DNA from: Coprobacillaceae bacterium
GTDB taxonomy: Bacteria > Bacillota_I > Bacilli_A > Erysipelotrichales > Coprobacillaceae
Assembly: GCA_963675515.1 (NCBI GenBank)
Contig: OY776328.1
Coordinates: 1,680,001 to 1,712,000, forward strand
Direction: 5' to 3'
Length of the DNA: 32,000 bases
The notes under the pieces were generated by a model. It was not told where the DNA came from, did no database searches, and worked only from the letters and a program-made list of their open reading frames with translations. This document shows positions 8,201 to 25,280 of this stretch, in pieces (within the stretch, counting starts at the first letter, position 1; the number at the start of each line of letters is the position of its first letter). The translations under genes and the position numbers were made by a program.

Positions 8201-9787
8201 CTAAACAATCAGCCTTTGTTTTCTATTCTTTTTATTGTGAAATTTCATAAGGTTGAACCCTAGAGCTACCAAATACAGCTCGATTTTGACACTTTTAGCA
8301 CCTCGTCGTCTCAAACGGGTATATTTTATGTCTTCTTTGATGACTCCGAAGGCTCCCTCAACTTGGATGCTTCTCTGCCTTTTCAGTTCCTTGCCAAACT
8401 CAGTGGAAAGATTTTTATCGACTTCACTGTGGAATTCTTCAAGAACCGAATTTCGTCGCAATTTCCTTTCAACCACCGATTTGGTGCACAGTGACATATT
8501 GGAACAGTCACTGCAGCCTTGGCATCGGTAATTGGCTGTTATCTGGATATACTTCCCTTTGGTTTCATAACTGTCATCTACGTACTGATCAAAGACATTG
8601 CCTTCAGGGCAAATTTTGTAGCCTTCCTCATTTTCTGGCCAGTTGATTGAGTTGTAGATCCTCTTCTTGAATTTGGAATCATGTTTCTTTGCGTACATAT
8701 TGTACTTCATGCTCAAATTCATCCCACTTTCCAGGCAGTAGAAATAATTTTCATAGCTTCCATAACCGGCATCGCCAACTGGCCACTTAGGAAGAAATCC
8801 GTATTTCTCCTTGTAGGACTTCATAAAGGGAATAAAGGTCTTCACGTCACCAGGATTGGGATAAACGTCTAGATGGACGATATATTCATCACTGACTCCT
8901 AGCTGAAGATTGTAGCCTGGCTTGAATACTCCGGTTTGGTTATAGTAGTCGTATTTCATGTTCATCATTGTGGCATCATGATCGGTTTTGGAATAGCTGT
9001 TCCTCTCACCACAAATCTCCAACTTCTCTTCGTATTCAAACAATTTGATGAAATACTCCAAGATTTTATCATAAGCCGACTGCACCTTGGTTTTCCGTTT
9101 ACCCTTGCCATATACAATCTCGATATTCTCACTGACCATGTGCTCCATGAGGTCATCAGCGATTTCTCCTACATAATCCGATTGGTAATTTGGTGCAGCC
9201 TGATAGTCGGTAAAACCAAGACCAGCCAAGTCCGATATCGCTTCAGTTATTTTTAGATAAAGCTTGTCCCGGTTGGTTAATACTGCTTTCTTCCAGACGA
9301 AACTTGTCTTTCTGGCATTGGCTTCTATTTTAGTTCCGTCGATATAAATAATCGAGGTATCTACTTCCTCGAGCTTGACTATTTCTTTTGTGATATCATA
9401 AAAAATATCTTCTATTTTCAAAGCTAAACGGTTATTGATAAAACGCTGAAAAGCCATATGAGATGGTCTTTCCTCGTTCGATAACCACATATACCTAATA
9501 TCAAATTTGCACAAATCCTCAAGGTCACGAAGACTGGGATTACCGTTCATAAACGCAAACAATAAAACTTGCAACATCATATCAGGGTCGTAGCCCTTGT
9601 TACCTCTTTGACAGTTATCTGAAAAATACTTTCTAGTGTCAATTCCTCTCATAATCTCTACGAATGATGTCACTGGATCGTCAATTGGTAAAATAATATC
9701 AATATCCAGTGGAAGTTTGAATTGAAATGCGCTATAATTACCACTGTACTTGGGGTAATTGGACTCCAACATTTCGATGTTTAACAT
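8201..9787 (-). CDS. IS1182-family (IS5-like DDE) transposase, 528 aa, apparently intact
   Basis: N-terminal region with ...GNKGYDPDMMLQVLLFAFMNG... Cys-rich stretch YKICPEGN...YRCQGCSDCSNMSLC. C-terminal ...QVEGAFGVIKEDIKYTRLRRRGAKSVKIELYLVALGFNLMKF, typical of this family. Confidence 0.9.
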   Translation of the reverse strand: MLNIEMLESNYPKYSGNYSAFQFKLPLDIDIILPIDDPVTSFVEIMRGIDTRKYFSDNCQRGNKGYDPDMMLQVLLFAFMNGNPSLRDLEDLCKFDIRYMWLSNEERPSHMAFQRFINNRLALKIEDIFYDITKEIVKLEEVDTSIIYIDGTKIEANARKTSFVWKKAVLTNRDKLYLKITEAISDLAGLGFTDYQAAPNYQSDYVGEIADDLMEHMVSENIEIVYGKGKRKTKVQSAYDKILEYFIKLFEYEEKLEICGERNSYSKTDHDATMMNMKYDYYNQTGVFKPGYNLQLGVSDEYIVHLDVYPNPGDVKTFIPFMKSYKEKYGFLPKWPVGDAGYGSYENYFYCLESGMNLSMKYNMYAKKHDSKFKKRIYNSINWPENEEGYKICPEGNVFDQYVDDSYETKGKYIQITANYRCQGCSDCSNMSLCTKSVVERKLRRNSVLEEFHSEVDKNLSTEFGKELKRQRSIQVEGAFGVIKEDIKYTRLRRRGAKSVKIELYLVALGFNLMKFHNKKNRKQRLIV

Positions 9788-10545: not shown

Positions 10546-12168
10546 ATGGAATTTAAAATTTATGACAGCGATATATATCAGAATTATATCCAGGAATTCA
10601 AGGTAAGCCCGCTGGTTGCCAAGATTCTCGCATTTCACCAGGTCGACCAGGAAAGATACCAGGACCTGATGTCGACCCGGCTCAAGTATCACAGTTTCGA
10701 ACTGTTTGACGAAGGGGAAATGGCTCTTGAGCGGATCTTCGAAGCGATTGCCAACAAGGAGAAGATATGCATCTATGGCGACTATGACAGCGATGGAATC
10801 CTGGGGACCTCGATTCTGGTCAACGCCTTCAAACAGCTTGGCGTCGAGGTCGGGTTCCATATCCCCAACCGTTTTTTTGACGGCTACGGATTGACTTGCA
10901 GTCGGGTTGAACAGATCCACTCCAAGGGATACAGTCTTATCATCACCGTTGACAACGGAATCCAGGCGTTTTCAGCCATCGAAAAGGCCAACGAGCTGGA
11001 AATTGATGTGATCATCACCGACCATCATGAAGTGGGGGCGACCCAGCCCGAAGCAATGAGCATCATCCATCCCAAGACATCTTATAACTATCCTTTCAAG
11101 GAAATAAGTGGCGGGTTCACAGCCTACAAGCTGGCCAGCGCCCTTTTGAAAAAACATGACCCTTACCTGTTTTCCCTGGCCGGGATCACGATCCTTTCGG
11201 ATGTCATGCCAATTATCGATGAAAACCGGGCCCTGGTGAAAAAAGCGATCGAGTTCATGAATACGAACAATTACCAGACAATCACCCTGTTAAAAGACAA
11301 CAACAACCCAATCAATCCGACATTGCTCAATTTCCAGGTTATCCCGAAAATAAACGCTCTGGGCCGCTTGCCGGAGATGATCTCCCCAAACAAGCTAGTC
11401 CGCTATTTCGCCCTGCTTGAAAGCCAAAGCTACAACATCGCCCTGGCGGGACAAATCAAGGATGTCAACGCCAGGCGCAAAGAGATGACCCAGCGTTACT
11501 ATGAGCAGATAATGGAAAAAAACAATGAGGGAGAATTTTTGTTTTTTGCAAGCAAAAAACTGCATCAGGGCATCAGCGGTCTGATCGCATCCAGGTACAC
11601 GAACACATACAACCAGCCAAGCTTCGTGATGACTTACGATGAACACTCGCAAATGTTCAAAGGTTCGGCGCGTTCGGTTGAGGGCATCAATATCACCGCG
11701 GCCTTTAATTACTGCGACGATCTCCTTGACCACTATGGCGGGCATGATATGGCTGGGGGATTCTCGCTCAAACAGGAGAACCTCAAGGAATTCAAACTAA
11801 GACTTGAACAATATCTAAAACAGGAGAAGTTCACCGCGCCAATCAAGGATGTCATCAAGGTGTCGTCAAATGAGCTGACTATGGAAAACATCACCGACCT
11901 GGAAACGCTCGAGCCTTTTGGGCCCGGCTTCGAGAATGTCGATTTCTATTTTGAAAATGTGACAATCACCAACCTGATCACCCTTTCCAACGGGCAGCAC
12001 CTCAAGTTCAAGGCGGGTTCGATCGACTGCCTGTTTTTCAATCACGGTCATCTTGCTGCACAGCTTGGCAGCCTGAATTCAATCAGTTTCGCTGGAAAGC
12101 TGACCATCAATGAATTTCGAAACAAAAAAAGCATCAACGTCCACCTTAGTGGCATAAAAGGTATTTAA
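10546..12168 (+). CDS. recJ: Single-stranded-DNA-specific exonuclease RecJ (short, 540 aa)
   Basis: DHH-family motifs ICIYGDYDSDGI, ITVDNGI, VIITDHHE, and DHHA1-type GGHDMAGGF. Confidence 0.9.
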   Translation: MEFKIYDSDIYQNYIQEFKVSPLVAKILAFHQVDQERYQDLMSTRLKYHSFELFDEGEMALERIFEAIANKEKICIYGDYDSDGILGTSILVNAFKQLGVEVGFHIPNRFFDGYGLTCSRVEQIHSKGYSLIITVDNGIQAFSAIEKANELEIDVIITDHHEVGATQPEAMSIIHPKTSYNYPFKEISGGFTAYKLASALLKKHDPYLFSLAGITILSDVMPIIDENRALVKKAIEFMNTNNYQTITLLKDNNNPINPTLLNFQVIPKINALGRLPEMISPNKLVRYFALLESQSYNIALAGQIKDVNARRKEMTQRYYEQIMEKNNEGEFLFFASKKLHQGISGLIASRYTNTYNQPSFVMTYDEHSQMFKGSARSVEGINITAAFNYCDDLLDHYGGHDMAGGFSLKQENLKEFKLRLEQYLKQEKFTAPIKDVIKVSSNELTMENITDLETLEPFGPGFENVDFYFENVTITNLITLSNGQHLKFKAGSIDCLFFNHGHLAAQLGSLNSISFAGKLTINEFRNKKSINVHLSGIKGI

Positions 12169-12212
12169 ATAATCAAAAATCAATGTTAGAATGTACATAT
12201 GGAGGAACATAA

Positions 12213-12731
12213 ATGAACTTAGAGAAATATATAGCGGCGATCCAGGATTTCCCCGAGGAGGGGATCCTGTTCCGGGATATCACCCCGTTGCTGCAGGATG
12301 GGGCGGCATTCCAATATGCCATCACCCGTTTTGTCGACTGGACCAACACGCTCGACGTCAAGGTTGATGTCGTAGTCGGCCCGGAATCAAGGGGCTTCAT
12401 TTTCGGCTGCCCGGTGGCCTATGAAATCGGAGCGGGATTCGTACCGGTCCGAAAACCAGGCAAACTTCCTCGCGACACAATTTCATACAAATATGATCTG
12501 GAATATGGAAGCAATGAAGTTCATATGCACTACGATGCCATCAAGCCGGGGCAAAACGTGATCATCGTCGACGATCTGCTGGCAACCGGAGGAACAATCG
12601 AAGCATCCATCAAGCTTGTTGAAGAGCTGGGTGGCAATGTTGCAGGTGTCGCTTTTGTGATCGAGCTTGAAGAACTTGAAGGCATTAAGCATCTTGAAGG
12701 GTACAATGTCATTTCATTGTTGAAATACTGA
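12213..12731 (+). CDS. apt: Adenine phosphoribosyltransferase
   Basis: 172 aa. [19 protein letters not shown]-binding loop [13 protein letters not shown]. Confidence 0.95.
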
Positions 12732-12769
12732 TAAAACAAAAAGTCAAATTTGAAAAAGGAGGTCGGACT

Positions 12770-14998
12770 ATGTTTAAAAGCGGTAAAGGGGCCCATGAAG
12801 TCGTGGTGTTCCAGGACATAATGGATGTCGTAAAAACCTATGTTACAAACCCCGAAGATCTTGATCTGATCAACCGGGCCTATGAATTTATCATGATTAA
12901 ACACGCCGACCAGAAAAGGCGCTCCGGGGAACCATACACCAACCATTTGCTGTGGGTTGCCTATATCCTGGCTACATTGCAGACCGGACCTAAAACCATA
13001 GCCGCCGGCTTGCTCCATGATGTTATGGAAGACTGCGATGTGCCCCGGCCAGAGATGGTCGAGCGATTCGGTGATGAAGTTACGACCCTGGTCGAAGGGG
13101 TCACCAAGATCAACAAGATAAACTTCAAAGATGAAGACGAGGTTTACGCGGAAAACCACCGCAAGATCTACATCGCCATGGCCAGCGATATCAGGGTCAT
13201 CCTGATCAAATTCGCCGACCGGCTCCACAACATGAGGACCCTTCAGTACATGAAGCCTCAAAGCCAGAAGCGTATCGCCCGCGAAACGCTTGAAGTATAT
13301 ACCCCGATTGCCCATCGGCTGGGGCTTTCGGACATCAAGACCGAACTTGAAAATTTGTCGCTTTCATACCTGGATCCGATCGCCTACAACGACATCGTTT
13401 TGTTGCTCAAGGAAAAAGAGGAACAGCGCCGGATTTACATCGATAAGATGATCAATGATGTTTCCAAGCTTCTTGATGAAAACAAGTTCTCCTACCGGAT
13501 TGTGGGAAGACCGAAGTCGATCTACAGCATTTACAAGAAGATGTTCGTCAAGAACAAGCGTTTCGATGAGATTTACGACCTGTATGCTTTGCGCATCATC
13601 ACCGACACCAAGCAGTCATGTTACTCGATCTTGGGTCTGATGCATGAAAAATACCGTCCGATTCCCGGAAGGTTCAAGGACTACATCGCAATGCCAAAGC
13701 CCAACATGTATCAGTCGTTGCATACTTCGATAATCGGTGATGACGGGCACACCTATGAACTCCAGATCAGGACCGAGCTAATGGACGAACTGGCGGAACT
13801 CGGGGTGGCGGCCCACTGGCGCTACAAGGAAAACAGGGGCTATTCGTCACAGAAGGAACAGCAGGAAATCGGCGAGAAGCTCCAGTGGCTTCGGGATTTC
13901 ATCACTCTTTCGGATGATATCAAGGACCGTGATGCCAAGGAATTCTATGACAGTCTAAAACGGGATATCTTCGAGGCCAATGTCTATGTGCTCACACCTC
14001 AGGGGAAAATCATCGAACTTCCCAATGGGGCCACACCGGTCGATTTTGCTTACCGGATCCACTCGGAAGTGGGCAACAAGTGTGTCGGTGCTTTGGTCAA
14101 CAATGTCATGGTGCCAATCAACACGAAACTCAACACCGGCGATGTCGTGGAAATCAAGACAAGCAAGAACGCCACTCCCAACCGGGACTGGCTCAAGTTC
14201 GTCAGGACAACCGGAGCCCGCAACAAGATCCGCCAGTACATCACCAAGATAGAGGCCCAAAGCCGCAAGGAAATGGTCGAAGCTGGTCGGAAGATCTTCA
14301 GGGACGAGATCCGCAAGCGCAATCTCGATGAAGCCAAATACCTTAACGAGGAGACCTACAAGACATACCTTGGGGCATTCGGGGCCAAGAGCTTCGAGGA
14401 CATCCTGTTTTTCATCGGTAAGAAGAATCTGTTGCCAATGTCGGTCATCGACAAGGTAATCCCCAAACGGGGCGGGCTGATCGACAACATCTCCAAGATG
14501 CTCCAGCGCAACACCAATTTCCAGGCCAGCCAGGCCAAGGCCAATGTTTCCAAGACTGGAGTTGTCGTTGAGGGCATCGACGGTATAAAAATTACCTTAT
14601 CGAAGTGCTGCAATCCAATTCCCGGCGATGATATTGTCGGATTCGTTTCCAAAGGACAGGGGATAAAGGTCCATCGCTCAACCTGCCCCAATGTCCAGAA
14701 CGAAGAGATCAAACGAAGGCTTATCCCGGTATACTGGGACAATGCCCAGACGCTCAATCACAAGTTTGATGTCGACATCGAGATCCGCGGACTTGACCGG
14801 GGCAACCTGCTCAATGAAATCATCAACGTGCTGGGGCAAAGCAAGATTTCCATTTTGAAAATCAATGCGGAAAGCCAGGATGCCGAAGCATTCATCCAGC
14901 TAAAGCTCGCAGTCGAAGACAACGATTCCTTGTCGACAGCCTTCGTCAATCTCGAAAAAATAATAGGCATCTATGATGTCAAACGGATAATCCACTGA
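12770..14998 (+). CDS. relA: Bifunctional (p)ppGpp synthetase/hydrolase (RelA/SpoT homologue)
   Basis: 742 aa. HD hydrolase motif (HLLWVA...LLHDVMED), synthetase region (RPKSIYSIYKKM...YQSLHT), and TGS and ACT-like C-terminal domains. RBS AAAGGAGG. Confidence 0.95.
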   Translation: MFKSGKGAHEVVVFQDIMDVVKTYVTNPEDLDLINRAYEFIMIKHADQKRRSGEPYTNHLLWVAYILATLQTGPKTIAAGLLHDVMEDCDVPRPEMVERFGDEVTTLVEGVTKINKINFKDEDEVYAENHRKIYIAMASDIRVILIKFADRLHNMRTLQYMKPQSQKRIARETLEVYTPIAHRLGLSDIKTELENLSLSYLDPIAYNDIVLLLKEKEEQRRIYIDKMINDVSKLLDENKFSYRIVGRPKSIYSIYKKMFVKNKRFDEIYDLYALRIITDTKQSCYSILGLMHEKYRPIPGRFKDYIAMPKPNMYQSLHTSIIGDDGHTYELQIRTELMDELAELGVAAHWRYKENRGYSSQKEQQEIGEKLQWLRDFITLSDDIKDRDAKEFYDSLKRDIFEANVYVLTPQGKIIELPNGATPVDFAYRIHSEVGNKCVGALVNNVMVPINTKLNTGDVVEIKTSKNATPNRDWLKFVRTTGARNKIRQYITKIEAQSRKEMVEAGRKIFRDEIRKRNLDEAKYLNEETYKTYLGAFGAKSFEDILFFIGKKNLLPMSVIDKVIPKRGGLIDNISKMLQRNTNFQASQAKANVSKTGVVVEGIDGIKITLSKCCNPIPGDDIVGFVSKGQGIKVHRSTCPNVQNEEIKRRLIPVYWDNAQTLNHKFDVDIEIRGLDRGNLLNEIINVLGQSKISILKINAESQDAEAFIQLKLAVEDNDSLSTAFVNLEKIIGIYDVKRIIH

Positions 14999-15202: not shown

Positions 15203-16402
15203 ATGGAATATTCTTGTGTTTTACATGTCCAAGCCTTTGGTGAATTTCAAATCAGTAATGAGACAGGTCAGCTGAATCTGAGCATGCTTAAATCCAAACG
15301 ACTATCAAAACTGCTGTTGTATTTTGTGACCCATCACAGCACCATCATCCCTTCTTCGGATCTGTGCGATTACCTATGGGAAGAGAACGAGAGCTCCAAC
15401 CCGATCGGGGCGCTTAAAAACCTCGTCTACCGGTTGCGGACGGTAATGAAGCGGGTATGGCCCGATCATGATCTTATAATGACGGGATCGGGGACTTATT
15501 TCTGGAACTCGAATGTAAAACTAATTGTCGATTTCGAAGAATTCTACGAATTGGTCAGTTCGGTAAGTGATGAAATGGACGAAGAGTCGAAGATAAGTCG
15601 TTACAAAAGAGCTACGGAAATATATCAGGACCGGCTGTTTGCCCATTTTGATTATGATTCCTTGATAATGCAGAATTCGATGTATTATCACAATGTTTTT
15701 TTGAAAATGACCAAAGATTTCCTGAAGGTGCTTTACAACCAGAAACTTTATGATGAGCTTTATTTTTATTCCAACAATGCATTGACTCTTGACAATACAG
15801 AAGAGGATTTTTACCGTTATGAAATAATGGCACTGGGCCAAAATAATGAGTTTGAACTGGCCCGGGTCAAATATGAGACAGCCAAATATGTTCTTAATCA
15901 TGAGCTTGGGGTTTTGCCAAGCGATAAGCTGATCAAGACTTATGAACAGATTTTAAGCCAGTTTCTTCAGGCCAATGAATCAATCGACAAGGTCCAACAG
16001 GACATTGTTCCGCTGCAATCAAATAACGTTCTTGTATGTGATTACGGAGCATTTAAAAACCTATGCAATCTTGAGCTTCGGCTGGCGCAAAGACACTCGT
16101 TCGATTCGACTTTGCTTCTGGTCTCGGTTAATGTGATGAAACCGTTTGACGGCCATTCCAAGATCTTCCGGGATACCTTGAATAGGGGAATGGACCGTGT
16201 TGAAGATGTTTTGATTGATGCACTGCGCAACAGCGATTCGGTTTCCAAGGTCTCGCCCAATCAGTACAGCTGTCTTCTTAGCATGTGCAATATTGACGAT
16301 GCAACCTTGGTTATCGAGAGAATCGAGAAATATTTTTACCGCGGTCTGAAAAAAAACGACATCTACATAACTTGCAACAGTCAAAAACTTGGGTCTAACT
16401 GA
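15203..16402 (+). CDS. SARP-like transcriptional activator (OmpR-type wHTH + BTAD) fused to a degenerate GGDEF-like domain
   Basis: ORF track 15188..16402 starts at a TTG. ATG 15203 follows GGGGAG. The N-terminus LHVQAFGEFQI...SKLLLYFVTHH...SSDLCDYLWEE...NPIGALKNLVYRLRTVM fits the SARP/wHTH pattern. The middle helical BTAD-like region includes ...ALGQNNEFELARVKYETAKYVLNHELGVLPSDKLIKTYEQIL. The C-terminal ~105 aa follow the GGDEF-domain pattern (STLLLVSVNVMKPFDGHSK...ALRNSDSVSKVSPNQYSCLL...ATLVIERIEKYF), with GGDEF replaced by SPNQY and RxxD (RNSD) retained 5 residues upstream. Confidence 0.75.
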   Translation: MEYSCVLHVQAFGEFQISNETGQLNLSMLKSKRLSKLLLYFVTHHSTIIPSSDLCDYLWEENESSNPIGALKNLVYRLRTVMKRVWPDHDLIMTGSGTYFWNSNVKLIVDFEEFYELVSSVSDEMDEESKISRYKRATEIYQDRLFAHFDYDSLIMQNSMYYHNVFLKMTKDFLKVLYNQKLYDELYFYSNNALTLDNTEEDFYRYEIMALGQNNEFELARVKYETAKYVLNHELGVLPSDKLIKTYEQILSQFLQANESIDKVQQDIVPLQSNNVLVCDYGAFKNLCNLELRLAQRHSFDSTLLLVSVNVMKPFDGHSKIFRDTLNRGMDRVEDVLIDALRNSDSVSKVSPNQYSCLLSMCNIDDATLVIERIEKYFYRGLKKNDIYITCNSQKLGSN

Positions 16403-16416
16403 GCCAAGTTTTTTTG
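16383..16416 (+). terminator. Rho-independent terminator of the regulator gene
   Basis: AAAAACTTGG (16383-16392) / CCAAGTTTTT (16404-16413) plus further T residues. The stop codon lies in the loop. Confidence 0.75.
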
Positions 16417-16430
16417 TGGTTTTTCAATCT

Positions 16431-16463
16431 TGTGACTTCAGTGTGACAGGTAAATAATATTAT
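16431..16463 (+). promoter_or_regulatory. Direct-repeat operator plus -10 (site 2): TGTGACT-tcag-TGTGACA-N9-TATTAT
   Basis: Heptamers at 16431-16437 and 16442-16448, with TATTAT at 16458-16463. Spacings are identical to sites 1 and 3. Confidence 0.7.
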
Positions 16464-16594
16464 GTTATTGAAATTAGAGGTAAAGACAATAACTCAAGGC
16501 GAACACGAAAACCCGAAAATGTCTTACCATAATATCCGTATTATTTGTTACATAATCATGTTAGTTTACTATTAAGGAAAGGAAGAATGACAAC

Positions 16595-17278
16595 ATGAAG
16601 AAATTCACAAAGTATTTAATGATTTTTGCATTGGTTTTTGGTCTTACCCTGTCATTGACTATGGCTCTTTTGACTGATACCACATCATCGGCAACAAACG
16701 TTTTTACATCATCACGGGGAATCGACATTGAGTTAAGAGAACCGGCATGGGATGGATACGATTTTTCAGAAGCTTGGCCGGGCGGTACATCACCTAAATC
16801 AGCTGATGTAACCCTTGGTTACAACATAGCCAATGAGTACTTGCCAGGAGATACTGTGCCTAAAGATCCGACCATCAAAGCCATGACCGGAAGCGACAAC
16901 ACCTACGTGGCAATGAAATTGACCTACAAGGTTAACGATGTTGTAGTTCCTTATGCAACATTTGCGACATATCTTCGAGATGGCAGCATCGCATTTGACA
17001 CTGGAGCGGCAGTAGACGAATGGTCTAATGAATCGACAGTGCCTGCAGACAATGATTTCTTTGTTTTCAATTCTTATCTTGTAGCCGATTCAGCTCAAGC
17101 AACGACATCACCATTGTTCACCCAAGTGTTGATTTCCTTCGGATTGGTTCCTGATGGTTCAGGTAACTTACCAAAATTGGAAATAGATGCAACTGCTTAT
17201 GGTGTTCAAATATCATTGCCAGCTGGAACTGACAAGGCAACAGCTTTGAAAACCCTTGCCGGATACCCAGCGCCTTGA
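16595..17278 (+). CDS. Secreted TasA-like paralogue, REPxWDGY subfamily (227 aa)
   Basis: RBS GGAAAGGAAG. SipW-type signal MKKFTKYLMIFALVFGLTLSLTMALLTDTTSSATNVFTS. Paralogue of 2101..2802 (see that entry). Confidence 0.8.
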   Translation: MKKFTKYLMIFALVFGLTLSLTMALLTDTTSSATNVFTSSRGIDIELREPAWDGYDFSEAWPGGTSPKSADVTLGYNIANEYLPGDTVPKDPTIKAMTGSDNTYVAMKLTYKVNDVVVPYATFATYLRDGSIAFDTGAAVDEWSNESTVPADNDFFVFNSYLVADSAQATTSPLFTQVLISFGLVPDGSGNLPKLEIDATAYGVQISLPAGTDKATALKTLAGYPAP

Positions 17279-17333
17279 TATTAATTGATTAATTCAACGA
17301 TCACTAAACATAATTAAAAAAGGAGAAAATATT

Positions 17334-17984
17334 ATGAAATTGAACAAGAAAATTGCTGCAATTGTCACTACAGCAGCGATTGCACTCAGTGCCACTGTCG
17401 GATTCACGCTGGCATACTTCACTGACTACACCAAAACTGAAACCAACACAATCACAATGGGACATGTTGACATCGATTTAAGAGAAACTTCAGTTGCAGG
17501 ACCTGGCGTTAAGGCTGGTACGGCTACTGATGACGGTTACGATTACAATGATGTAATGCCTGGCGATGTCTATTCCAAACAGCCTGTAATTACAGTAATG
17601 GCTGGATCTGAAGATTGTTATGTCCGCGCACTGGTTACTCTTAAGACAATAGATACAGGCGGCGATGGGGTCATCTCTGAAGCTACTCTGTTGAGCTATT
17701 TGAATATTGAGACAACCGATTGGTTTATCGGTAGTTTGACAAGTAATCCTGATGGTTCAGAAAGTGCATATGTGTATTATAAGAACTCTTTGGCAGCTGG
17801 CGCAAACGTAACTGTATTCTCTACAGTATCATTCCCAAGCAGCTTGACCAACAGCAGCACAAACGATGATTACATAATAACTGTAAAGGCTGAAGCGATT
17901 CAAGCAGCTAATGTGACACCTACAACCAACCCAGGTGGCATGATCACTGGTTGGCCTGCAGCGGCAATCGAACAATATTCTTAA
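17334..17984 (+). CDS. Secreted TasA/camelysin-like protein with SipW-cognate signal peptide (216 aa)
   Basis: RBS AAAGGAGA. N-terminus ...ALSATVGFTLAYFTDYTKTETNTITMGHVDIDL is a close match to the SipW-cognate signal and mature N-terminus pattern. Also MPGDVYSKQPVITV...SEDCYVRALVTL and ...ITVKAEAIQAANV. Confidence 0.85.
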   Translation: MKLNKKIAAIVTTAAIALSATVGFTLAYFTDYTKTETNTITMGHVDIDLRETSVAGPGVKAGTATDDGYDYNDVMPGDVYSKQPVITVMAGSEDCYVRALVTLKTIDTGGDGVISEATLLSYLNIETTDWFIGSLTSNPDGSESAYVYYKNSLAAGANVTVFSTVSFPSSLTNSSTNDDYIITVKAEAIQAANVTPTTNPGGMITGWPAAAIEQYS

Positions 17985-18042: not shown

Positions 18043-19095
18043 CTATCCCAATTTCTGGGTGATATATTGGTTGTTCTTGCAGTACTTGATCACTGTTTCC
18101 CTGGATATGATACGGTCCTGGTAAAGTTGCAGCAGACTGTTGTCAAGGGTCACCATGTTTTGCCGGTCGCTTTCAATGATCGAGTCGATCTGGTGGATCT
18201 TTTTTTCTCTTATAAGGTTGCGGATGGCCGGATTGACAATCATGATTTCAAACACCGGAATGAGCTTGCCGGAAATATCGGGAACGAGATGCTGCGACAC
18301 GACCGCATTGAGGGTCAGTGAGAGCATCATCGCTATCTGCGGCTGCTCATTGGCTGGAAAGGCATCGATGATCCGGTTGATTGTATTGCTTGCGCCGATT
18401 GTATGGAGTGTGGAAAACACCAGGTGGCCGGTCTCGCTTGCGGTTATCGCAGTCTCGATAGTTTCATGGTCGCGCATCTCCCCAAGCAGGATGACATCGG
18501 GACACTGGCGCAGGCTGGCCCTCAGGGCGGTCAGATAACAGTTGGTGTCATTGCCGATCTCCCGCTGGGTGATTATCGATTTGTTGTGGACATGAAGATA
18601 CTCGATAGGGTCTTCAAGAGTGATGACATGACGGGCATGATTGTGGTTGATGTAGTCGATGATGCATGCCAGGGTTGTCGATTTGCCGCTTCCTGAAGGT
18701 CCGGTGAAAAGGATCAGCCCGTTGGTCTGGTCGCCTAGAGCAATCAGCTGTTCGGGAATGTTCAATTCCTGGAAATCCGGAAGCTTGAAGGCGATGATTC
18801 GGATCACGCAAGCCAGTGAACCCCGCTGTTTGAACATGCTCACCCGGAAGCGGGAAAGGTGGGCTATCGAGAAGGCGAAATCGTCATCGCCGTCATTGAA
18901 GAGGATATCGACATCGCGCTTGGCGATTTCGTAAATCTGGCTGATAAGCTGTTTGGTGTCTTCGGTGGTGAGTACATCATTGTTCAAGGGGCACAGTTGA
19001 TTGTCTTTCTTGAACTTGACTGGGATGTTGGCTTCGATAAAGATATCCGAAGCCTGCATGGTTATTGCCCGGTGCAGAATTGAAGTAATTTCCAT
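18043..19095 (-). CDS. pilT: PilT-family type IV filament ATPase (retraction-ATPase type), 350 aa
   Basis: ORF track 18043..19128. Start moved to ATG 19095 (AGGAGA 5 nt upstream). Walker A GPSGSGKSTT, ITLEDPIEY, LRQCPDVILLGEMRD, ETGHLVFSTLHT, and the PilT/PilU-specific motif AIRNLIRE (PAIRNLIREKKIHQI). There is no N-terminal extension of PilB/GspE type. Confidence 0.85.
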   Translation of the reverse strand: MEITSILHRAITMQASDIFIEANIPVKFKKDNQLCPLNNDVLTTEDTKQLISQIYEIAKRDVDILFNDGDDDFAFSIAHLSRFRVSMFKQRGSLACVIRIIAFKLPDFQELNIPEQLIALGDQTNGLILFTGPSGSGKSTTLACIIDYINHNHARHVITLEDPIEYLHVHNKSIITQREIGNDTNCYLTALRASLRQCPDVILLGEMRDHETIETAITASETGHLVFSTLHTIGASNTINRIIDAFPANEQPQIAMMLSLTLNAVVSQHLVPDISGKLIPVFEIMIVNPAIRNLIREKKIHQIDSIIESDRQNMVTLDNSLLQLYQDRIISRETVIKYCKNNQYITQKLG

Positions 19096-19096
19096 A

Positions 19097-19483
19097 TCAT
19101 TCTCCTGTGTAGACTGGAGCCAAGTCATCTAGCTGGTAATCCGAATTGTTTTGGACCTGCAAGGAGATGATTTGCTTGGCATTATAATCGTAAACCAATG
19201 TGACTGTCTGGCCATAGTCAATGACCTCCTGGAAAGTTATCACATTTGCTTCCATTTGAAAATCGTATTGTTCCTGAAGGGTTGCCAACGGAATTTCCCG
19301 GCTGTCGTTGATGAAACGGTTGATTATCGACCTGGCCTCAAGGTAGGTGAGGTTGTGGGCGAGGTTCTGGTCAATCAGGGTTTGGCTGGCCTTGGTCTGG
19401 ATGTATGAGTTGAATGTCAATGTGATCAATACCAGGATGATGATGATATTGAAAAGGCTTGTCAGCCCGATTCTAATCTTCAT
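19097..19483 (-). CDS. Pseudopilin-like small protein (128 aa, ComGG-sized)
   Basis: RBS GAGGTGG. N-terminus MKIRIG/LTSLFNIIIILVLITL is a short basic leader plus a hydrophobic helix. Gly at the -1-like position is retained, but no Glu occurs at +5. Confidence 0.6.
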   Translation of the reverse strand: MKIRIGLTSLFNIIIILVLITLTFNSYIQTKASQTLIDQNLAHNLTYLEARSIINRFINDSREIPLATLQEQYDFQMEANVITFQEVIDYGQTVTLVYDYNAKQIISLQVQNNSDYQLDDLAPVYTGE

Positions 19484-19841
19484 AAGCCACCTCGTAGTCA
19501 GTCGCGATGATCAGGTTGTCATATTTGTCGTAAACATCAAGATGGAATATCGGGAAATTGTTTTCAACTTTTACGCAATAATAATAATCGTCCGTGGTGT
19601 TTATATTGTTGCTGTCAAAAAGGATTAGCGAATCACTGGTTTGGTAGTAACCTTCAAGATCGCCTTGATGTTCTTGAAGGATTGCGACGATACTGTTGAG
19701 CTGGATGATTGCTTTGGCCTTGATCGTGTTGTGGTAATTGATGAGAGTTGTTTTCATCATGATCTGGATGACCAGCGCCAGGGCGATTGCGAAAACCAGA
19801 AGGTTGACACATAGCTCGAGCATGCTTATCTTATCTTTCAC
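19473..19841 (-). CDS. Pseudopilin-like small protein (122 aa, ComGE/GF-sized)
   Basis: GTG start overlapping the upstream stop (GTGA), with GGAGGG 6 nt upstream. N-terminus (M)KDK/ISMLELCVNLLVFAIALALV has a Glu at the +5-like position, but Lys replaces Gly at -1. Confidence 0.6.
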   Translation of the reverse strand: MKDKISMLELCVNLLVFAIALALVIQIMMKTTLINYHNTIKAKAIIQLNSIVAILQEHQGDLEGYYQTSDSLILFDSNNINTTDDYYYCVKVENNFPIFHLDVYDKYDNLIIATDYEVAYED

Positions 19842-20254
19842 GGCTTGCCCTCCAGGCTCAAGTAGTAGTTTTCGTTGATTACAAGCAGGCCATCAATGAG
19901 ATCCAGGTCCAGTTTTTCCATGGAACATATCTGGTCCCCATATTCCATATCGAATTCCCGGCCGGCCGGCAGATAAAGCTCGCATAGGTAACCATCGTTG
20001 TTGTACAGGTAGGTCACATATGAAGAACCATCTTCGAGTACAAGAATGTCCGGGGTATCATCTTTTTTTATTTCAACCGATTTGGCCCGCTTGATCTTTT
20101 CGTTTATGAAGCTGATCACAAACTGCTCATCTACAAGGGCATCTTGGGCTATGGCTGTCTTGTTTGTGATGTTTAGCACCAGGATGCAGATGGCGCCAAG
20201 GGTGAATATAAAGATGCCGGTAATGAGGTATGAAAACAAGTCGCTTTTATTCAT
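19838..20254 (-). CDS. Pseudopilin-like small protein (138 aa, ComGD-sized)
   Basis: Overlaps the upstream gene by 8 nt. N-terminus MNKSDLFSYLITGIFIFTLGAICILVL is a single N-terminal hydrophobic helix with no G/FTLxE motif. Confidence 0.55.
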   Translation of the reverse strand: MNKSDLFSYLITGIFIFTLGAICILVLNITNKTAIAQDALVDEQFVISFINEKIKRAKSVEIKKDDTPDILVLEDGSSYVTYLYNNDGYLCELYLPAGREFDMEYGDQICSMEKLDLDLIDGLLVINENYYLSLEGKP

Positions 20255-20531
20255 AGGCGAATACCGTCAAGTCAGGTATGATGTTTTCTCCAATCGGGAT
20301 CAAAAAAACCTGATATCTTGTCTTATCGAAGCTTAGGCCGTAATTTTCCTCAAGATATCCCAGTGATTCGGGATAACGCCCCTCATTGATGTAACAAAGC
20401 AGTATCTTGTCATTGATCGACTGCTCGAGTGCATGCAATGCGTTTTTTTGGCTGGTCTTATTGAACTGGTTGACAAATATGATTGCCAGGGCCAATGCAA
20501 TAATGACCAGCGACAATTTTACCATCTTCAT
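20247..20531 (-). CDS. ComGC/GspG-like major pseudopilin candidate with degenerate prepilin motif (94 aa)
   Basis: ATGA overlap with the upstream stop. MKMVK/LSLVIIALALAIIFVNQF aligns to ComGC MNEKG/FTLVEMLIVLFIISILL, but G-1 is K and E+5 is I. The globular part ...HALEQSINDKILLCYINEGRYPESLGYLEENYGL matches the ComGC/GspG pattern (...G.YP..L..L...GY). Confidence 0.65.
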   Translation of the reverse strand: MKMVKLSLVIIALALAIIFVNQFNKTSQKNALHALEQSINDKILLCYINEGRYPESLGYLEENYGLSFDKTRYQVFLIPIGENIIPDLTVFAYE

Positions 20532-21460
20532 AAGTCTGAAAGAATCGCGAACAGCGGCAATATCAATGAGAGCAGGATGATTGCCACAATGACGACAAAA
20601 CCGGTGCCAAAGTATAGTTCGAACTTGGCCAATGATTCATCCATCCTTGTATTGGCCTTCTGGCGATACTCGTCGAAAAGCATTTCGAGAACCTTTTCAT
20701 GGGTTCCGTTCTGGATGCTCATTTCCAACAAGGACAGCTCAAGAGGCTCGAGCCGGGAAGAAAACGCCTCGATCACGCCCGATTTGGACATGTTGGCTAT
20801 TCCAGCTGCCTGATCGAAAGAAACTCCGGCCTTTACCAGGGTGGAAACGGCAAAAAGCTCATTGGATGCCCGATTGAGAGCCTTTGCCTTTTTGAATATC
20901 CCAACCTTGTCTTGCCGGATCATTCCCAGCAACAAAAGCATACCAGATAGCACAATGATGATGAAGTAAGTGAGGTAATCATTGATGAAGTATCCCAGCT
21001 GAAGGCTTATCCTGGCAACACCGGTCAGCTGTGCTCCCATGCTTGCATAAAGGTCGTTGAACACCGGGAGAATCCTGGTAACCAGGATGGTCATTATGGC
21101 TATCATGACCAGGCTAATGCCAATGGGGAAATTCAACATCCTTTTCAATTTCCTGTTGCTTTGATCAAGTTGCTTGTAATAGTTTGTCAGGTGAAGAAAT
21201 ACTTCGTCAAGATTTCCCGAATGCAGGCCGGCTTTGACCAGGTCAAGATAAAGCTGGTCAAACAATCCGGTGCTTTCCAGGGCGGAAATGATGTCATTTT
21301 GTTCGAGCTGGGCGATTACCTGGTTCAACAGATACTTCATCCGCATTTGTGTGGTGTTTGTTTCAAGCAATCTAAGTCCCGCCAAGAAACTTTGGCCGCT
21401 GGTGGAAATCAGATACATTTGCTTTGAAAAATTTATGATTAGATCGTAATCGTTTCTCAT
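20528..21460 (-). CDS. PilC/ComGB/GspF-family platform membrane protein (short, about 310 aa)
   Basis: ORF track 20528..21472. I prefer ATG 21460 (GGAGG 5 nt upstream); ATG 21472 overlaps the upstream stop as TAATG and remains possible. Two GspF-like repeats (...LVKAGLHSGNLDEVF... and ...LVKAGVSFDQAAGI...) and three hydrophobic segments. Confidence 0.75.
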   Translation of the reverse strand: MRNDYDLIINFSKQMYLISTSGQSFLAGLRLLETNTTQMRMKYLLNQVIAQLEQNDIISALESTGLFDQLYLDLVKAGLHSGNLDEVFLHLTNYYKQLDQSNRKLKRMLNFPIGISLVMIAIMTILVTRILPVFNDLYASMGAQLTGVARISLQLGYFINDYLTYFIIIVLSGMLLLLGMIRQDKVGIFKKAKALNRASNELFAVSTLVKAGVSFDQAAGIANMSKSGVIEAFSSRLEPLELSLLEMSIQNGTHEKVLEMLFDEYRQKANTRMDESLAKFELYFGTGFVVIVAIILLSLILPLFAILSDL

Positions 21461-21471
21461 TGCCGCCTCCA

Positions 21472-22392
21472 TTAAAAGATGTATTTCAGCTCATAATTTT
21501 CGCTGTCGGTTGTGAATTCCTGGATTTTCTTGTTGCCTGGGTCTTGCGAGATGAAGGTGGGATCCATGATTTGCCATTTCTCGTTTTCAAAATAGATGAA
21601 ATTGTCGATCCAACCGGTCTGATCCGTATAGACACTGACCCAGGCATGATATGTGTCTTTGACATATCCGAATTCCAGCCGGGTCGGGATAGCCTGGGTG
21701 CGCAGCATCGCGACAAGCAATGACGCGTAATCGAAGCATATCCCTTTTTTGGATTGGTAGATAGAGTTTAGATCCGGAATATAATCGTAGGCGACACTTT
21801 TAGCCTTTTCATAGTCATAATCGTAGTTGGTTATAATGTAATCGAAGATTAGCTGGATCTTTTCCAGGGTTGACGACGCATTTGTGACCAGCTCGCTGGC
21901 AACATATACAACCTGGGTGTCCTTGTCGAAATTGACATACTGGTTGTTGTACAAGAAGGCATTGAATCCGTTTTCCTGCTCAACTTTGAAGCTGGTCTTG
22001 AATATCTTGCCATAGCGGTTGCCTTCGATATTTTCATAAACCGTGATCCCATAAGTTCCTGATGTCTCGACCAGATTGAAAAAGTCGATTTTTCCGGTCA
22101 GGTTGTATGTGTAGATGGCCCCTGAAGGCAGTGTCAGCTGGAGTTTGGGCCTGTCGTTGGTTCCGGTGTATTTCACTCCAAAATACCCTTTGACGACATT
22201 GGTCAGGTCTATTTCCACCGCATCGTTGCCTTGGGTTTTTCCTTCATTGAAGCTGGCAAGATAGAAAACCGGTTCGCTTTTCAAGGTGGCTTGATTGGAG
22301 GAAGAAGCGAGATTCAAAGGGGATGGTGTCTGGGCGTTGGTACCACATCCGCTCAAAAGCATGGCTGCGATGATCAGGAATTTGAATTTCAT
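21472..22392 (-). CDS. Lipoprotein with C-terminal transglutaminase-like (papain-fold Cys-His-Asp) domain
   Basis: ORF track 21472..22458. Start moved to ATG 22392 (AGAGGTG upstream). Lipobox MKFKFLIIAAMLLSGC. Transglutaminase core KKGICFDYASLLVAMLRTQAIPTRLEFGY...YHAWVSVY...GW...IMDPTF (Cys, His, Asp). Confidence 0.8.
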   Translation of the reverse strand: MKFKFLIIAAMLLSGCGTNAQTPSPLNLASSSNQATLKSEPVFYLASFNEGKTQGNDAVEIDLTNVVKGYFGVKYTGTNDRPKLQLTLPSGAIYTYNLTGKIDFFNLVETSGTYGITVYENIEGNRYGKIFKTSFKVEQENGFNAFLYNNQYVNFDKDTQVVYVASELVTNASSTLEKIQLIFDYIITNYDYDYEKAKSVAYDYIPDLNSIYQSKKGICFDYASLLVAMLRTQAIPTRLEFGYVKDTYHAWVSVYTDQTGWIDNFIYFENEKWQIMDPTFISQDPGNKKIQEFTTDSENYELKYIF

Positions 22393-22536
22393 CTGGATAT
22401 CACCTCTTATCGTTGAGCAAAGATCCATAAACCGGATTTTCAATTGCGGTTTGCTCACATATGGTAATTATACAAGATTTCCCCGTTTTTATAAAGGGTA
22501 ACAATTCATTTCCTTTAAAACAACAATTGATAGAGA

Positions 22537-22569
22537 TGTGACTGACATGTGACTGGTTAACGTTAAAAT
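22537..22569 (+). promoter_or_regulatory. Direct-repeat operator plus -10 (site 3): TGTGACT-gaca-TGTGACT-N9-TAAAAT
   Basis: Heptamers at 22537-22543 and 22548-22554, with TAAAAT at 22564-22569. It lies in the divergent intergenic region shared with the minus-strand operon. Confidence 0.7.
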
Positions 22570-22593: not shown

Positions 22594-23238
22594 ATGAACA
22601 AGAAGATAATAATAGGAATGATATTCATACTAGGAGTAGTTGGTTTTAGCGTTCGTGGCACCTACAGTGTCATTCAAAGCAGTTTTGAAACCCAGAAAGC
22701 TATCTACACCCCATATCTTGGCATAGATTTTGTCAATGGTGACGGTAGCACGATGTCTGACAATTTTTTGGAGAGTGAGGTGTATGGAATGCCGGGTGAT
22801 GTCATCGATGGCGGACTGGCGATCAAAAACACCGAAAATACGACAGCCTACGTCCGGGTGACGATTTACCGCTACTGGGCCGATGAAGACGGGACCAAAA
22901 ACACAACCGACCGGGATGATCCAAATTACCTCGATCCCGCCCAAATCCAGTTCACGATAGCGAACGGCTGGCTTGTTTTTGACGGTGATGAGTATTCCGA
23001 AGTCACATATGCGTATTACACCAGACCGCTGGATCCAGGAGAGTATGCTACGGTCATCGATTCGTACACTTATCTGGATGTAACCCAAAACAACAATCTT
23101 TACGCTGACAAGATCGTCCATCTCGAGTTCTTCGGTTATGGCGTTCAGACCTTTGATGCCAAGAACTCTTTCAAGGCTGAATGGGGCGTTGATGTTGAAT
23201 TTGACGCTGATGAGAACATTGTTTCAATCGGATTGTAG
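22594..23238 (+). CDS. Secreted TasA/camelysin-like protein (214 aa)
   Basis: ORF track 22585..23238 (GTG). ATG 22594 follows AGAGGTG. N-terminus MNKKIIIGMIFILGVVGFSVRGTYSVIQSSFETQKAIY is a divergent SipW-type signal. MPGDVIDGGLAIKNTENTTAYVRVTIY and ...HLEFFGYGVQTFDAKNSFKAEWGV parallel the other paralogues. Confidence 0.7.
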   Translation: MNKKIIIGMIFILGVVGFSVRGTYSVIQSSFETQKAIYTPYLGIDFVNGDGSTMSDNFLESEVYGMPGDVIDGGLAIKNTENTTAYVRVTIYRYWADEDGTKNTTDRDDPNYLDPAQIQFTIANGWLVFDGDEYSEVTYAYYTRPLDPGEYATVIDSYTYLDVTQNNNLYADKIVHLEFFGYGVQTFDAKNSFKAEWGVDVEFDADENIVSIGL

Positions 23239-23253
23239 AAAAGAGGGATGAAA

Positions 23254-23880
23254 ATGAAAAAACTGATAATTGGTTTGGCCATCACTCTTGTAGCTTTTCT
23301 GTCAATGAACAATGTGGCTGCAGCGGATGTGATCACCTATCAAGGTGATGCCAACAGATTCATAATGCTTGACGGTAATGCCCCGGATTTCGAAAACATG
23401 CTTCCAGGTGAATCAAGAACAGTCACTTTCAATCTGGTAAATGGCAGTGGCGGACAGATGCGTTTCTATATGTCAAGCGAGATTCTCGACAATATCGCAA
23501 ACAAAGGTGACGGGGATGCGGTGTACACATTCACCATCGCCGATGGGACAACACCGTTTTTTGAAACCGAAGTCGGAAATGATGAAGTGACCATCGGGTT
23601 GCAGTTTCTGACCAATGACAACAACATCCTGTTGGGGACTTTGAATGCCGGCGCATCAAAGACAATCAATGTCACCCTTTCACTGGACGGGGATTCGGCC
23701 AACAACGAATATCAAGGGCAAACCGGGGTAGTCAATTTCATATTCTCAGTCGAGCAGCCTTTGCCAAAGATTGTCAAAACCGGCGACGAATCGGTTTCAC
23801 CGCTTGTCTATGGTGGCTTGATCGTGGCAGCGGGATTAGTGCTGATACTGTACAAAAGGGGTGGTAAACATGAAAAGTAG
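23254..23880 (+). CDS. Secreted beta-sandwich-type protein with C-terminal sortase-like sorting signal (IVKTG + TM + basic tail)
   Basis: ORF track 23248..23880. ATG 23254 has better RBS spacing (AGAGGG). Classical signal ...SMNNVAAADV. C-terminus PLPKIVKTGDESVSPLVYGGLIVAAGLVLILYKRGGKHEK. Confidence 0.7.
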   Translation: MKKLIIGLAITLVAFLSMNNVAAADVITYQGDANRFIMLDGNAPDFENMLPGESRTVTFNLVNGSGGQMRFYMSSEILDNIANKGDGDAVYTFTIADGTTPFFETEVGNDEVTIGLQFLTNDNNILLGTLNAGASKTINVTLSLDGDSANNEYQGQTGVVNFIFSVEQPLPKIVKTGDESVSPLVYGGLIVAAGLVLILYKRGGKHEK

Positions 23881-24703: not shown

Positions 24704-25200
24704 TGGTGAAGCTCATCCATTTTTTAACCAATACAGTTATCGTCATTGTAGTCGCCTTTATGGCATTGTTGTATGTTCCAAGAATCATGGGAATCAGCCC
24801 TTATGTGGTGTTGTCGGGTTCGATGGAGCCTACTTACCATGTGGGCAGTCTGATTTTCGTAAACAAGAATTTTGATTCGATTGAAGTTGGTGATCCAATC
24901 ACCTTCCAAATATCCAGTTCAACTCTGGTAACCCACCGGGTTATTGAAGTGGACCAGGAGGCGATGCTCTACACGACCAAAGGCGATGCCAACAATACTG
25001 CCGATGGTTCCAAGGTGGCATATGACAATATTGTCGGGGTGCCAATGTTCACAATCCCATACCTGGGATATGTGGCGGTGTTCGCAATCAGTTTCAATGG
25101 CAAGATCATCCTGGGATCCGTGGTGGCTTTGATGATACTGCTTAGCTACCTGGCAGATATGTACAGGAAAGACCAAGAAAAAATGCCTACTCAACCCTGA
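24703..25200 (+). CDS. sipW: Signal peptidase I, ER/archaeal type (SipW-like, Ser-His)
   Basis: ORF track 24700..25200 (TTG). ATG 24703 overlaps the upstream TGA (TGATG). SPase boxes VLSGSMEPTY, LVTHRVIEV (His in place of the bacterial Lys box) and TKGDANNTADG. Contains an N-terminal and a C-terminal TM segment. Confidence 0.85.
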   Translation: MVKLIHFLTNTVIVIVVAFMALLYVPRIMGISPYVVLSGSMEPTYHVGSLIFVNKNFDSIEVGDPITFQISSSTLVTHRVIEVDQEAMLYTTKGDANNTADGSKVAYDNIVGVPMFTIPYLGYVAVFAISFNGKIILGSVVALMILLSYLADMYRKDQEKMPTQP

Positions 25201-25274: not shown

Positions 25275-25280
25275 GTGGTT

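Follow-up and report, generated by a model that had tools for sequence, protein, structure and literature searches.

Streptomyces antibiotic regulatory proteins (SARPs) count as the textbook activators of antibiotic genes in actinomycetes, and the repeats bound by those of Streptomyces are of the TCGAGxx type. Other described systems resemble further parts of the locus studied here: PelD and PopA are degenerate-GGDEF receptors that hold cyclic di-GMP (c-di-GMP) at a retained RxxD inhibitory site (I-site), and in Bacillus, SinR and AbrB act as repressors of the tapA-sipW-tasA operon. The promoters on which SARPs act contain direct repeats whose period is 11 or 22 bp, and 8 bp separate the 3' repeat from the -10 element; in the 22-bp afs box, which is centred at -29.5 and overlaps the -35 region, the downstream repeat matters most; and two SARP protomers of AfsR lie side by side on the DNA, forming a docking surface for sigma region 4 (PMC10936776). 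We analysed a 32-kb stretch of a Coprobacillaceae genome (contig OY776328.1; hereafter the window) in which a gene for a SARP-like regulator at 15203-16402 lies among three operons of secreted proteins, each of them preceded by a tandem repeat of the heptamer TGTGACW.

We consider it likely that the three tandem heptamers are the operator of this regulator and that it serves as a SARP-type activator of the secreted-protein operons; that the protein binds, in which direction it regulates, where transcription starts and what its ligand is are points that we infer from the comparisons below. For the source genome, counts of the box refer to the window, and the wider comparison covers about 200 related loci.

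Tandem boxes in the window and their conservation

The pattern TGTGACWNNNNTGTGACW (TGTGACW-N4-TGTGACW) has exactly three matches in the window, all on the + strand, and each is followed at a fixed distance by a hexamer resembling a -10 element:

1363-1380, + strand: site 1, TGTGACTGCTATGTGACA, consisting of TGTGACT (1363-1369) and TGTGACA (1374-1380) with an 11-bp period
1390-1395, + strand: -10-like hexamer TAGTAT of site 1, 9 nt past the box; predicted start near G1402
16431-16448, + strand: site 2, TGTGACTTCAGTGTGACA, an exact pattern match consisting of TGTGACT (16431-16437) and TGTGACA (16442-16448)
16458-16463, + strand: -10-like hexamer TATTAT of site 2, 9 nt past the box; predicted start near G16470, giving a 125-nt leader
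22537-22554, + strand: site 3, TGTGACTGACATGTGACT, consisting of TGTGACT (22537-22543) and TGTGACT (22548-22554), in a divergent intergenic region
22564-22569, + strand: -10 hexamer TAAAAT of site 3, 9 nt past the box; predicted start near G22576

The initial annotation, made from the letters alone, had described the same tandem repeat at these three places, the 9-nt gap, the three hexamers and the start codons behind them (1456, 16595 and 22594), and both the exact pattern scan and a direct reading of the sequence agree with it. Its statement that the window holds no further tandem pair stands as well, the scan returning the three matches only. A scan of the window with the whole 33-nt pattern, allowing up to three mismatches, yielded no additional credible site, and at that tolerance neither the regulator gene nor the minus-strand operon of the window has a box upstream of it. 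In 100 dinucleotide-preserving shuffles of the window, the tandem pattern had a mean count of 0.00 and a largest count of 0, while single TGTGACW heptamers are mildly over-represented (14 in the window vs. 9.2 expected). Isolated heptamers had been reported to occur only within coding regions, which is correct, but their number is eight and not four, those at 4579 (-), 19199 (+), 23001 (-) and 29536 (-) having been overlooked.

Phylogenetic footprinting, suggested earlier as a check, was based on four fully syntenic loci from three related genomes, in which the regulator is 69-78% identical, and found the box kept at all three promoters. At site 3, both heptamers are invariant in loci L001-L003 and L118, the 4-nt spacer varies (GACA, ATTA, ACTA), the upstream flank is unalignable among the relatives, and the -10 TAAAAT is invariant in four genomes. 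The box of site 2 is exact in the closest relative (L001) and reads TGTTACC-N4-TGTGACA in the more distant L002 and L003; as these changes fall in the upstream repeat, the downstream repeat is invariant. The -10 of site 2 is TATTAT in the window and TACAAT in the orthologs and, since the latter sits at the same 9-nt distance, its position is conserved even though its sequence has changed. Orthologs of site 1 are fewer because the loci of the 70% relatives begin inside the gene for a von Willebrand factor A (VWA) protein, and homologs of the first gene were available only from the closest relative (82% identical). There the box is letter-identical (L004, 9900-9917), as it is in L062; the upstream flank diverges, and the -10 changes from TAGTAT to TAAGAT in L004 with T1, A2 and T6 kept. 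Across about 63 kb of the relatives' DNA, matches with zero or one mismatch were confined to these promoters, apart from one extra tandem site in L001. Judged from these alignments, the box is under selection, the heptamers and the 9-nt distance being retained while the spacer and the flanks drift.

The genes at the head of the three operons are distantly paralogous, and the upstream regions could for that reason share ancestry. The repeats might then be promoter sequence inherited at operon duplication, or a chance similarity, and bind no protein at all. We regard this as very improbable: the pattern is missing from all 100 shuffles, conservation among the sites and among orthologs is limited to the heptamers and the -10, their surroundings having diverged, and in other orders the same box stands ahead of targets that are not homologous (large VWA, Cna_B and DUF7601 proteins, and also the regulator itself).

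The extra tandem site of L001 (13279-13296) reads TGTTACT-N4-TGTGACT, has TATTTT 9 nt further on and falls within the operon 2 leader, about 43 nt short of the start codon. In its counterpart in the window (16535-16552), the downstream half TGTTACA at 16546-16552 alone remains. The same locus carries a group II intron open reading frame (RVT_1 and GIIM domains; 11678-13072) between the regulator gene and site 2, with box and operon intact.

The regulator and its linkage to the box across genomes

The regulator gene and its associated elements are as follows:

15203-16402, + strand: regulator with an OmpR-type winged helix, a BTAD (together the SARP domain) and a degenerate GGDEF domain, from Pfam, an AlphaFold model (AF2) and Foldseek
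listed at 16270-16402, residues ~270-399, + strand: degenerate GGDEF domain, the third domain of the protein, which the initial annotation had not mentioned
16383-16425, + strand: intrinsic terminator of the regulator gene, a hairpin overlapping the stop codon and followed by a T-run that is conserved in the alignment

The description of 15203-16402 as SARP-like was borne out by its domains and by its predicted fold. BTAD (PF03704) reaches 41.6 bits, where the cutoff is 22.1, and covers residues 109-251 counted from the ATG at 15203 (114-256 from 15188). All 25 aligned homologs match both BTAD and Trans_reg_C (best E value 8e-8), their winged helix-turn-helix being N-terminal, and a receiver domain (Response_reg) gave no match in any of these 25 family members. 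The AF2 model of the regulator has a mean confidence (pLDDT) of 87, and Foldseek matched it to the SARP domain of AfsR from structures of the transcription initiation complex (8k60_I/J and 8hvr_I) with E values of 1e-10 to 7e-9 and template modelling (TM) scores of 0.69-0.70, the best being 8k60 at 0.70 and 1e-10. EmbR was also matched (2fez, within E values of 1e-10 to 1e-8). Sequence identity to AfsR is only 18%. Within the family, whose proteins share about 30% identity elsewhere, the recognition-helix segment NPIGALKNLVYRLRT hardly varies, and at the level of sequence a near-invariant recognition helix agrees with a conserved DNA box. The terminator hairpin folds at -16.8 kcal/mol (z = -3.3; equalled by 0 of 200 shuffles), and because the regulator gene thus ends in a terminator of its own, operon 2 needs its own promoter.

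The linkage between box and regulator was examined in both directions. Starting from the motif, we scanned one genome per species (GTDB representatives) for TGTGACW-N4-TGTGACW-N9-TANNNT in 8-kb blocks and obtained at least 120 blocks. Among the matches listed, 22 of 120 encode a homolog of the regulator (23-35% identity, tblastn), where by our own estimate about 0.3 would be expected with one copy per genome. These blocks come from Lachnospiraceae, Acetatifactor, Eubacterium callanderi, E. aggregans, Eubacteriaceae, Acetivibrio, Thomasclavelia and Erysipelotrichaceae, and in the majority a homolog of an operon 3 protein begins 35-95 nt downstream of the box, with signal peptides of the ...GGTLAAF type.

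Starting from the regulator, we collected 80 metagenome loci by regulator homology only (27-34% identity, 952 kb), blind to the motif. In this set, TGTGAC-N5-TGTGAC occurs 34 times in 26 loci vs. 0.10 expected from base composition, a more than 300-fold enrichment, and six composition-matched rearranged control hexamers gave no match. The frame-shifted overlapping hexamers GTGACT and TTGTGA matched only as parts of TGTGAC sites, and other spacings from 0 to 16 gave none save a single match at 12; the 11-bp period is strict. All but one of the 34 sites lie on the same strand as the regulator gene. They occupy three kinds of place: 100-650 bp past the regulator stop codon and ahead of a secreted protein of 900-2000 amino acids; 1.7-3 kb upstream of the regulator and ahead of a TasA-like gene; and, in L202, immediately upstream of the regulator gene itself. 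At offset 9 from the 23 unique sites the hexamer is TAnnnT in 20 and CATAAT in 3, and no other offset exceeded 6. When the regulators were dereplicated at 85% identity into 46 clusters, 13 had an exact box and 7 more a box with one mismatch, as against 0-1 for the controls; in six of these seven the change falls in the upstream repeat (TATGAC, TGTAAC).

The genes behind the box in distant loci resemble those of the window. Homologs of the operon 3 proteins T3a, T3b and T3c follow it in many of them, and the large genes encode VWA, Cna_B, SpaA-fold, PA14 and DUF7601 proteins, as is usual for the adhesins and pilus tip proteins of Gram-positive bacteria. Of the second target classes, VWA adhesins are the most frequent, and the placing of locus 1 in the regulon, proposed earlier from the shared repeat, is supported because the distant targets parallel its combination of small secreted proteins and a VWA protein. 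An Eubacterium callanderi-type locus (L147) has four boxes in about 10 kb. In many distant loci, the regulator gene itself follows on the same strand behind the box and T3a-like genes (T3a/T3b, and T3c where detected), 2.6-3 kb on, an arrangement whose gene order suggests a positive feedback loop. By these scans the box is family-wide across Clostridia and Erysipelotrichales and extends beyond this genome, which the initial annotation, confined to the window, had not seen.

A separate observation concerns an approximately 40-nt promoter-like sequence, CTTGTGACATTTCTGTGACAATTGGCTGTTATGATAGCGG, which is nearly identical in Lachnospiraceae/Clostridia genomes (L021, L027, L066, L070, L077, L079 and L093) with varying genes downstream. 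It may be part of a mobile element.

The C-terminal domain gives the regulator a possible input. The last ~130 residues of the model match GGDEF domains (DosC, TM score 0.61, root-mean-square deviation 3.2 A; Foldseek), PF00990 (GGDEF) is found, weakly, in 21 of the 25 homologs, and the profile of the domain matches DgcR (6zxm, E value 1e-8) and DosC (4zve, E value 4e-7). The family motif LRxxDxxxRxSxNQF is in register with FRKSDIISRFGGEEF of DgcR (GGEEF) and DosC (GGDEF). The active-site motif is replaced by SPNQY in the window regulator and by S-x-N-Q-[F/Y] in the family and, as SPNQY aligns in register with the GGEEF/GGDEF positions, the catalytic GG(D/E)EF is lost. An RxxD I-site motif, R342-N-S-D345, precedes SPNQY by five residues, and R342, D345 and Q354 are invariant in the 25 homologs. 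As read from these alignments, the domain is a catalytically dead GGDEF fold with a retained inhibitory-site motif, which by analogy is most likely a sensor coupling activation to c-di-GMP or a related nucleotide; R342 and D345 are the candidate ligand-binding residues.

Promoter geometry and the case for activation

With the -10 set at -12 to -7, the box runs from about -39 to -18 and has its centre at about -28.5, and because of this span it takes the place of a missing -35 element. A G stands 7 nt past the -10 at all three window sites (1402, 16470 and 22576). From 57 non-redundant sites linked to the regulator family, we derived the consensus TGTGAC[T>C>A][G]nn[G/A]TGTGAC[T>A]-N9-TATAAT, with an A-rich tract 9-14 nt 5' of the box. 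The position 7 nt past the -10 is a purine in 49 of the 57, which fits a transcription start there. No conserved TTGACA-like -35 was found at 16-18 nt from the -10 in these sites, at most a weak cTG. Together with the geometry, this absence bears out the earlier reading that the repeats stand at the -35 position. The SARP-type arrangement that had been proposed also holds, the window boxes matching the published rule within about 1 bp, where the 1-bp difference (9 vs. 8) depends on how the edge of the repeat is defined. The predicted leader of site 3 is only 18 nt long and carries the Shine-Dalgarno sequence GAGGTG.

We also considered TGTGAC as the -35 element of sigma-A or of an alternative sigma factor and rejected it, as the resulting spacings to the -10 of 10 and 21 nt would fit no known sigma factor. 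In 9 of the 23 motif-blind sites, a second TATAAT-like hexamer occurs 11 nt, or one helical turn, past the first -10 (e.g., L125 at 9323 and L147 at 15543, within the L125-L204 set); the three window sites are without it.

Because the period, orientation and position of the box match those of the afs box and its downstream repeat is rarely altered, the regulator would activate the three promoters in SARP fashion. Each heptamer would carry one protomer, the two being neighbours on the same face of the DNA, and from the box the dimer would bring the sigma-A holoenzyme to the good -10 located exactly 9 nt downstream. The regulon would consist of operons for SipW-processed, TasA-related secreted proteins together with VWA-type adhesins, and the dead-GGDEF I-site domain would read a second messenger and so gate activation. 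That the repeats are sites of the SARP-like regulator, as initially put forward, is therefore supported computationally by the footprint, the two-way genomic coupling and the SARP geometry, with the binding itself predicted.

A number of observations weigh against parts of this proposal. The Trans_reg_C score of the window regulator, 23.7 bits, is below the Pfam gathering cutoff of 26.2, and c-di-GMP binding is deduced from a single RxxD motif plus analogy with I-site receptors. About 26 of the 46 dereplicated regulator clusters are without a recognisable box in the DNA scanned; a search of these clusters for any hexamer that recurs after 11 bp ahead of a -10, either exactly or with one mismatch, returned nothing recurrent. 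The same TGTGACA-N4-TGTGACA-N9-TAnnnT stands before ordinary response-regulator genes in Oscillospiraceae (L033, L037), and the same arrangement occurs in conserved promoters of Sphingomonas (L015, L045, L059, L114), Streptomyces (L105, L115, L122) and several Campylobacterota loci. Finally, a promoter scan gives sigma-70-like readings at two of the window sites, CTGACA-16-TAAAAT at site 3 (10 of 12 matches) and TTGTGA-17-AATAAT at site 2 (9 of 12), and the box overlaps the -35/spacer region, from where a bound protein could in principle repress.

Since boxes of this type are also found beside response-regulator genes of other phyla, the motif by itself does not single out the regulator family, and its presence in unrelated lineages makes it look like a recurrent solution for winged-helix activators. 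An OmpR/PhoB-family response regulator encoded elsewhere, or another winged-helix protein, could accordingly recognise the box, the SARP-like gene being linked to it by neighbourhood only. The half-site TGTTAC of L002 and L003 would fit WalR-like regulators, whose sites we take to be of the general type TGTWAH-N5-TGTWAH. We nevertheless think such a binder unlikely. The window contains no response-regulator gene, the enrichment and strand coupling arose in loci picked solely by the SARP-like gene, and that gene lies within 8 kb in the 22 blocks picked by pattern; the computed coupling in the two directions argues against a response regulator elsewhere. The presence of the box also co-varies with a variant of the recognition helix: the subfamily with ALKTLLYR[IV]R has the box in 2 of 13 clusters vs. 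18 of 33 for the others (Fisher p = 0.02), a comparison confounded by phylogeny. Homologs with the variant helix include L176, L183, L191, L192, L197 and L201, and a scan of them for an alternative repeat found none.

The sigma-70-like readings would be accommodated if the regulator instead bound the box as a repressor and so covered a sigma-A promoter in which -35 and repeats overlap. This, too, has a low probability in our view, given that the 57 family sites have no conserved -35-like hexamer to occlude at 16-18 nt from the -10, that the protein combines a BTAD activator domain with an AfsR-like fold that contacts RNA polymerase, that the position of the box equals that of the activating afs box, and that the regulator gene so often lies on the same strand behind box-led T3a-like genes, the layout suggesting positive feedback. 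Activation by the SARP-like regulator thus accounts best for the box, and we tentatively entertain, at less than even chances, the broader idea that the window holds a founding example of widespread c-di-GMP-responsive SARP-type activators in Firmicutes, which would drive TasA-like fibre genes, VWA/pilin-type adhesin genes and often their own genes from such boxes, across numerous Clostridia and Erysipelotrichales of the gut.

Target operons and comparison with described systems

The operons behind the three boxes and the neighbouring minus-strand operon are the following:

1456-5416, + strand: target operon 1, with a SipW-type secreted protein (1456-2058), its paralog (2092-2802) and a VWA-domain protein (2837-5416)
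16595-17984, + strand: target operon 2, with two paralogous SipW-type, TasA/camelysin-related proteins (16595-17278 and 17334-17984)
22594-25200, + strand: target operon 3, with T3a (22594-23238), T3b (23248-23880), T3c (23861-24703) and a SipW-type signal peptidase (24700-25200)
25189-25219, + strand: computed terminator of operon 3
18043-22458, - strand: divergent operon for a PilT-family ATPase, small pilin-like proteins (one DUF4860), a PilC-like protein and a transglutaminase, from domain matches
22495-22467, - strand: sigma-A-like, promoter-like site of the minus-strand operon, TTTATA-17-TATAAT, with the -10 block conserved in the alignment

Locus 1 sits 14 kb upstream of the regulator gene, and its 859-amino-acid protein at 2837-5416 has VWA and VWA_2 domains. 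The regulator, operon 2, the minus-strand operon and operon 3 form a block inserted between relA and hisS. The claim that the first gene of each operon carries a SipW-type signal peptide held directly for locus 1, where the protein at 1456-2058 reaches the model TIGR04088 (19.4 bits vs. a cutoff of 19). The first genes of loci 2 and 3 (16595 and 22594) do not reach this model themselves and have the assignment by paralogy: the second protein of operon 2, 17334-17984, scores 26.1 bits, the two operon 2 proteins match each other in BLASTP at 1e-12, and the T3a profile gave 94% in hhalign against the TasA-like protein at 17334 and 85% against operon 1. The label TasA-like is likewise correct in part, with one Peptidase_M73 match in operon 2 (E value 1e-6, N-terminal 50 residues only) and two proteins reaching TIGR04088, the others being connected by paralogy only. 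The model of T3a (pLDDT 69) had no significant match in the PDB. The signal peptidase at 24700-25200 matches both the SipW model (E value 2e-31) and the archaeal signal peptidase I model (E value 2e-30); it passes the cutoff of the archaeal model, and its SipW equivalog score of 108.9 is below the cutoff of 190.

The transglutaminase open reading frame as called (GTG at 22458, 328 amino acids) is separated at its start from the conserved -10 (22472-22467) by only about 9 nt. The true start probably lies about 20 codons further in, the orthologs being called at 306-307 amino acids. A transglutaminase/PilC-like/PilT-like operon divergent from a T3a-type operon, with the box between them, is also found in the distant Clostridia L013 and L050; in L013 the box starts 43 nt from the transglutaminase gene. 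The recurring divergent layout hints at functional coupling of the pilus-like machinery with the secreted proteins. In the window, site 3 may also act on the minus-strand operon, as the initial annotation suggested; that operon has a conserved sigma-A-like promoter of its own.

No riboswitch was found in the 125-nt leader of operon 2: at the gathering threshold, the sole Rfam family in the window is the T-box leader upstream of hisS-aspS (25278-25473, + strand; 119 bits). A DDE transposase gene (DDE_Tnp_1_6/DUF772; 8201-9787, - strand) lies between nitroreductase and Post_transc_reg genes and is a recent insertion sequence in this lineage, as the syntenic loci L001-L004 have no such gene there.

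Our literature search found no described fusion of a SARP/BTAD module with a degenerate GGDEF domain and no BTAD linked with c-di-GMP; nothing relevant came up on SARPs with SipW, on BTAD with Clostridium pili, on TasA/SipW in Lachnospiraceae or on DNA-binding proteins of Clostridia with a degenerate GGDEF domain. It also returned nothing on the control of TasA-like fibres or pilus adhesins in gut commensals, the regulation of which appears largely uncharted. The locus places the DNA-binding and activation module of SARPs, with its box geometry, in a predicted surface-fibre/adhesin regulon of cultured and uncultured gut Firmicutes, and Eubacterium callanderi and E. aggregans are cultured carriers of the system. 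The box TGTGAC[T/C/A]-N4-TGTGAC[T/A]-N9-TATAAT can be used for regulon prediction in hundreds of genomes. If the proposal is true, SARPs extend past the control of actinomycete antibiotics, and gut anaerobes gain a route by which a protein links c-di-GMP to their surface-fibre and adhesin genes.

Among described systems, the regulator shares with the SARPs AfsR, ActII-ORF4, DnrI and RedD of Streptomyces and EmbR of Mycobacterium the N-terminal OmpR-type winged helix and the BTAD. It differs from them in its host, a Firmicute (Erysipelotrichaceae, Clostridia) rather than an actinomycete, and in its predicted targets, which are surface-fibre and adhesin genes instead of antibiotic clusters, so that the historical secondary-metabolism sense of the name does not apply. 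Its repeat is TGTGACW and not TCGAGxx, its -10 elements are near consensus, and its third domain is a degenerate GGDEF where the "large" SARPs have NOD/TPR and EmbR has FHA. The box itself resembles the afs box of the afsS promoter in consisting of coding-strand direct repeats that recur every 11 bp and keep a short, constant distance to the -10, and in replacing the -35; the centres are at about -28.5 here and -29.5 there, and in both the promoter-proximal repeat is the better conserved.

The response regulators of the OmpR/PhoB family, with sites of the pho-box type, share winged-helix recognition of two direct 6-7-bp repeats one turn apart upstream of the -10. Unlike them, the regulator has no receiver domain or phosphorylation site and has a BTAD, and it is presumably controlled by a nucleotide ligand rather than by a kinase. 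With receptors of the PelD/PopA type it has in common a GGDEF fold that has lost the active-site motif and an invariant RxxD exactly five residues upstream; here, however, the domain is fused to a SARP module, and its ligand binding is predicted. The target operons recall Bacillus tapA-sipW-tasA and Clostridium perfringens BsaA/SipW in having small secreted proteins with SipW signals beside an archaeal-type signal peptidase I, although homology to TasA is very weak, amounting to Peptidase_M73 over the N-terminal 50 residues, and the T3a model is without a structural match. Where the Bacillus operon is under SinR and AbrB, a SARP-type activator is proposed here. The mechanism of the SARP box is thus already known, and what appears to be new is the fusion to a degenerate GGDEF domain, the gut Firmicute hosts, the fibre/adhesin regulon and the defined box.

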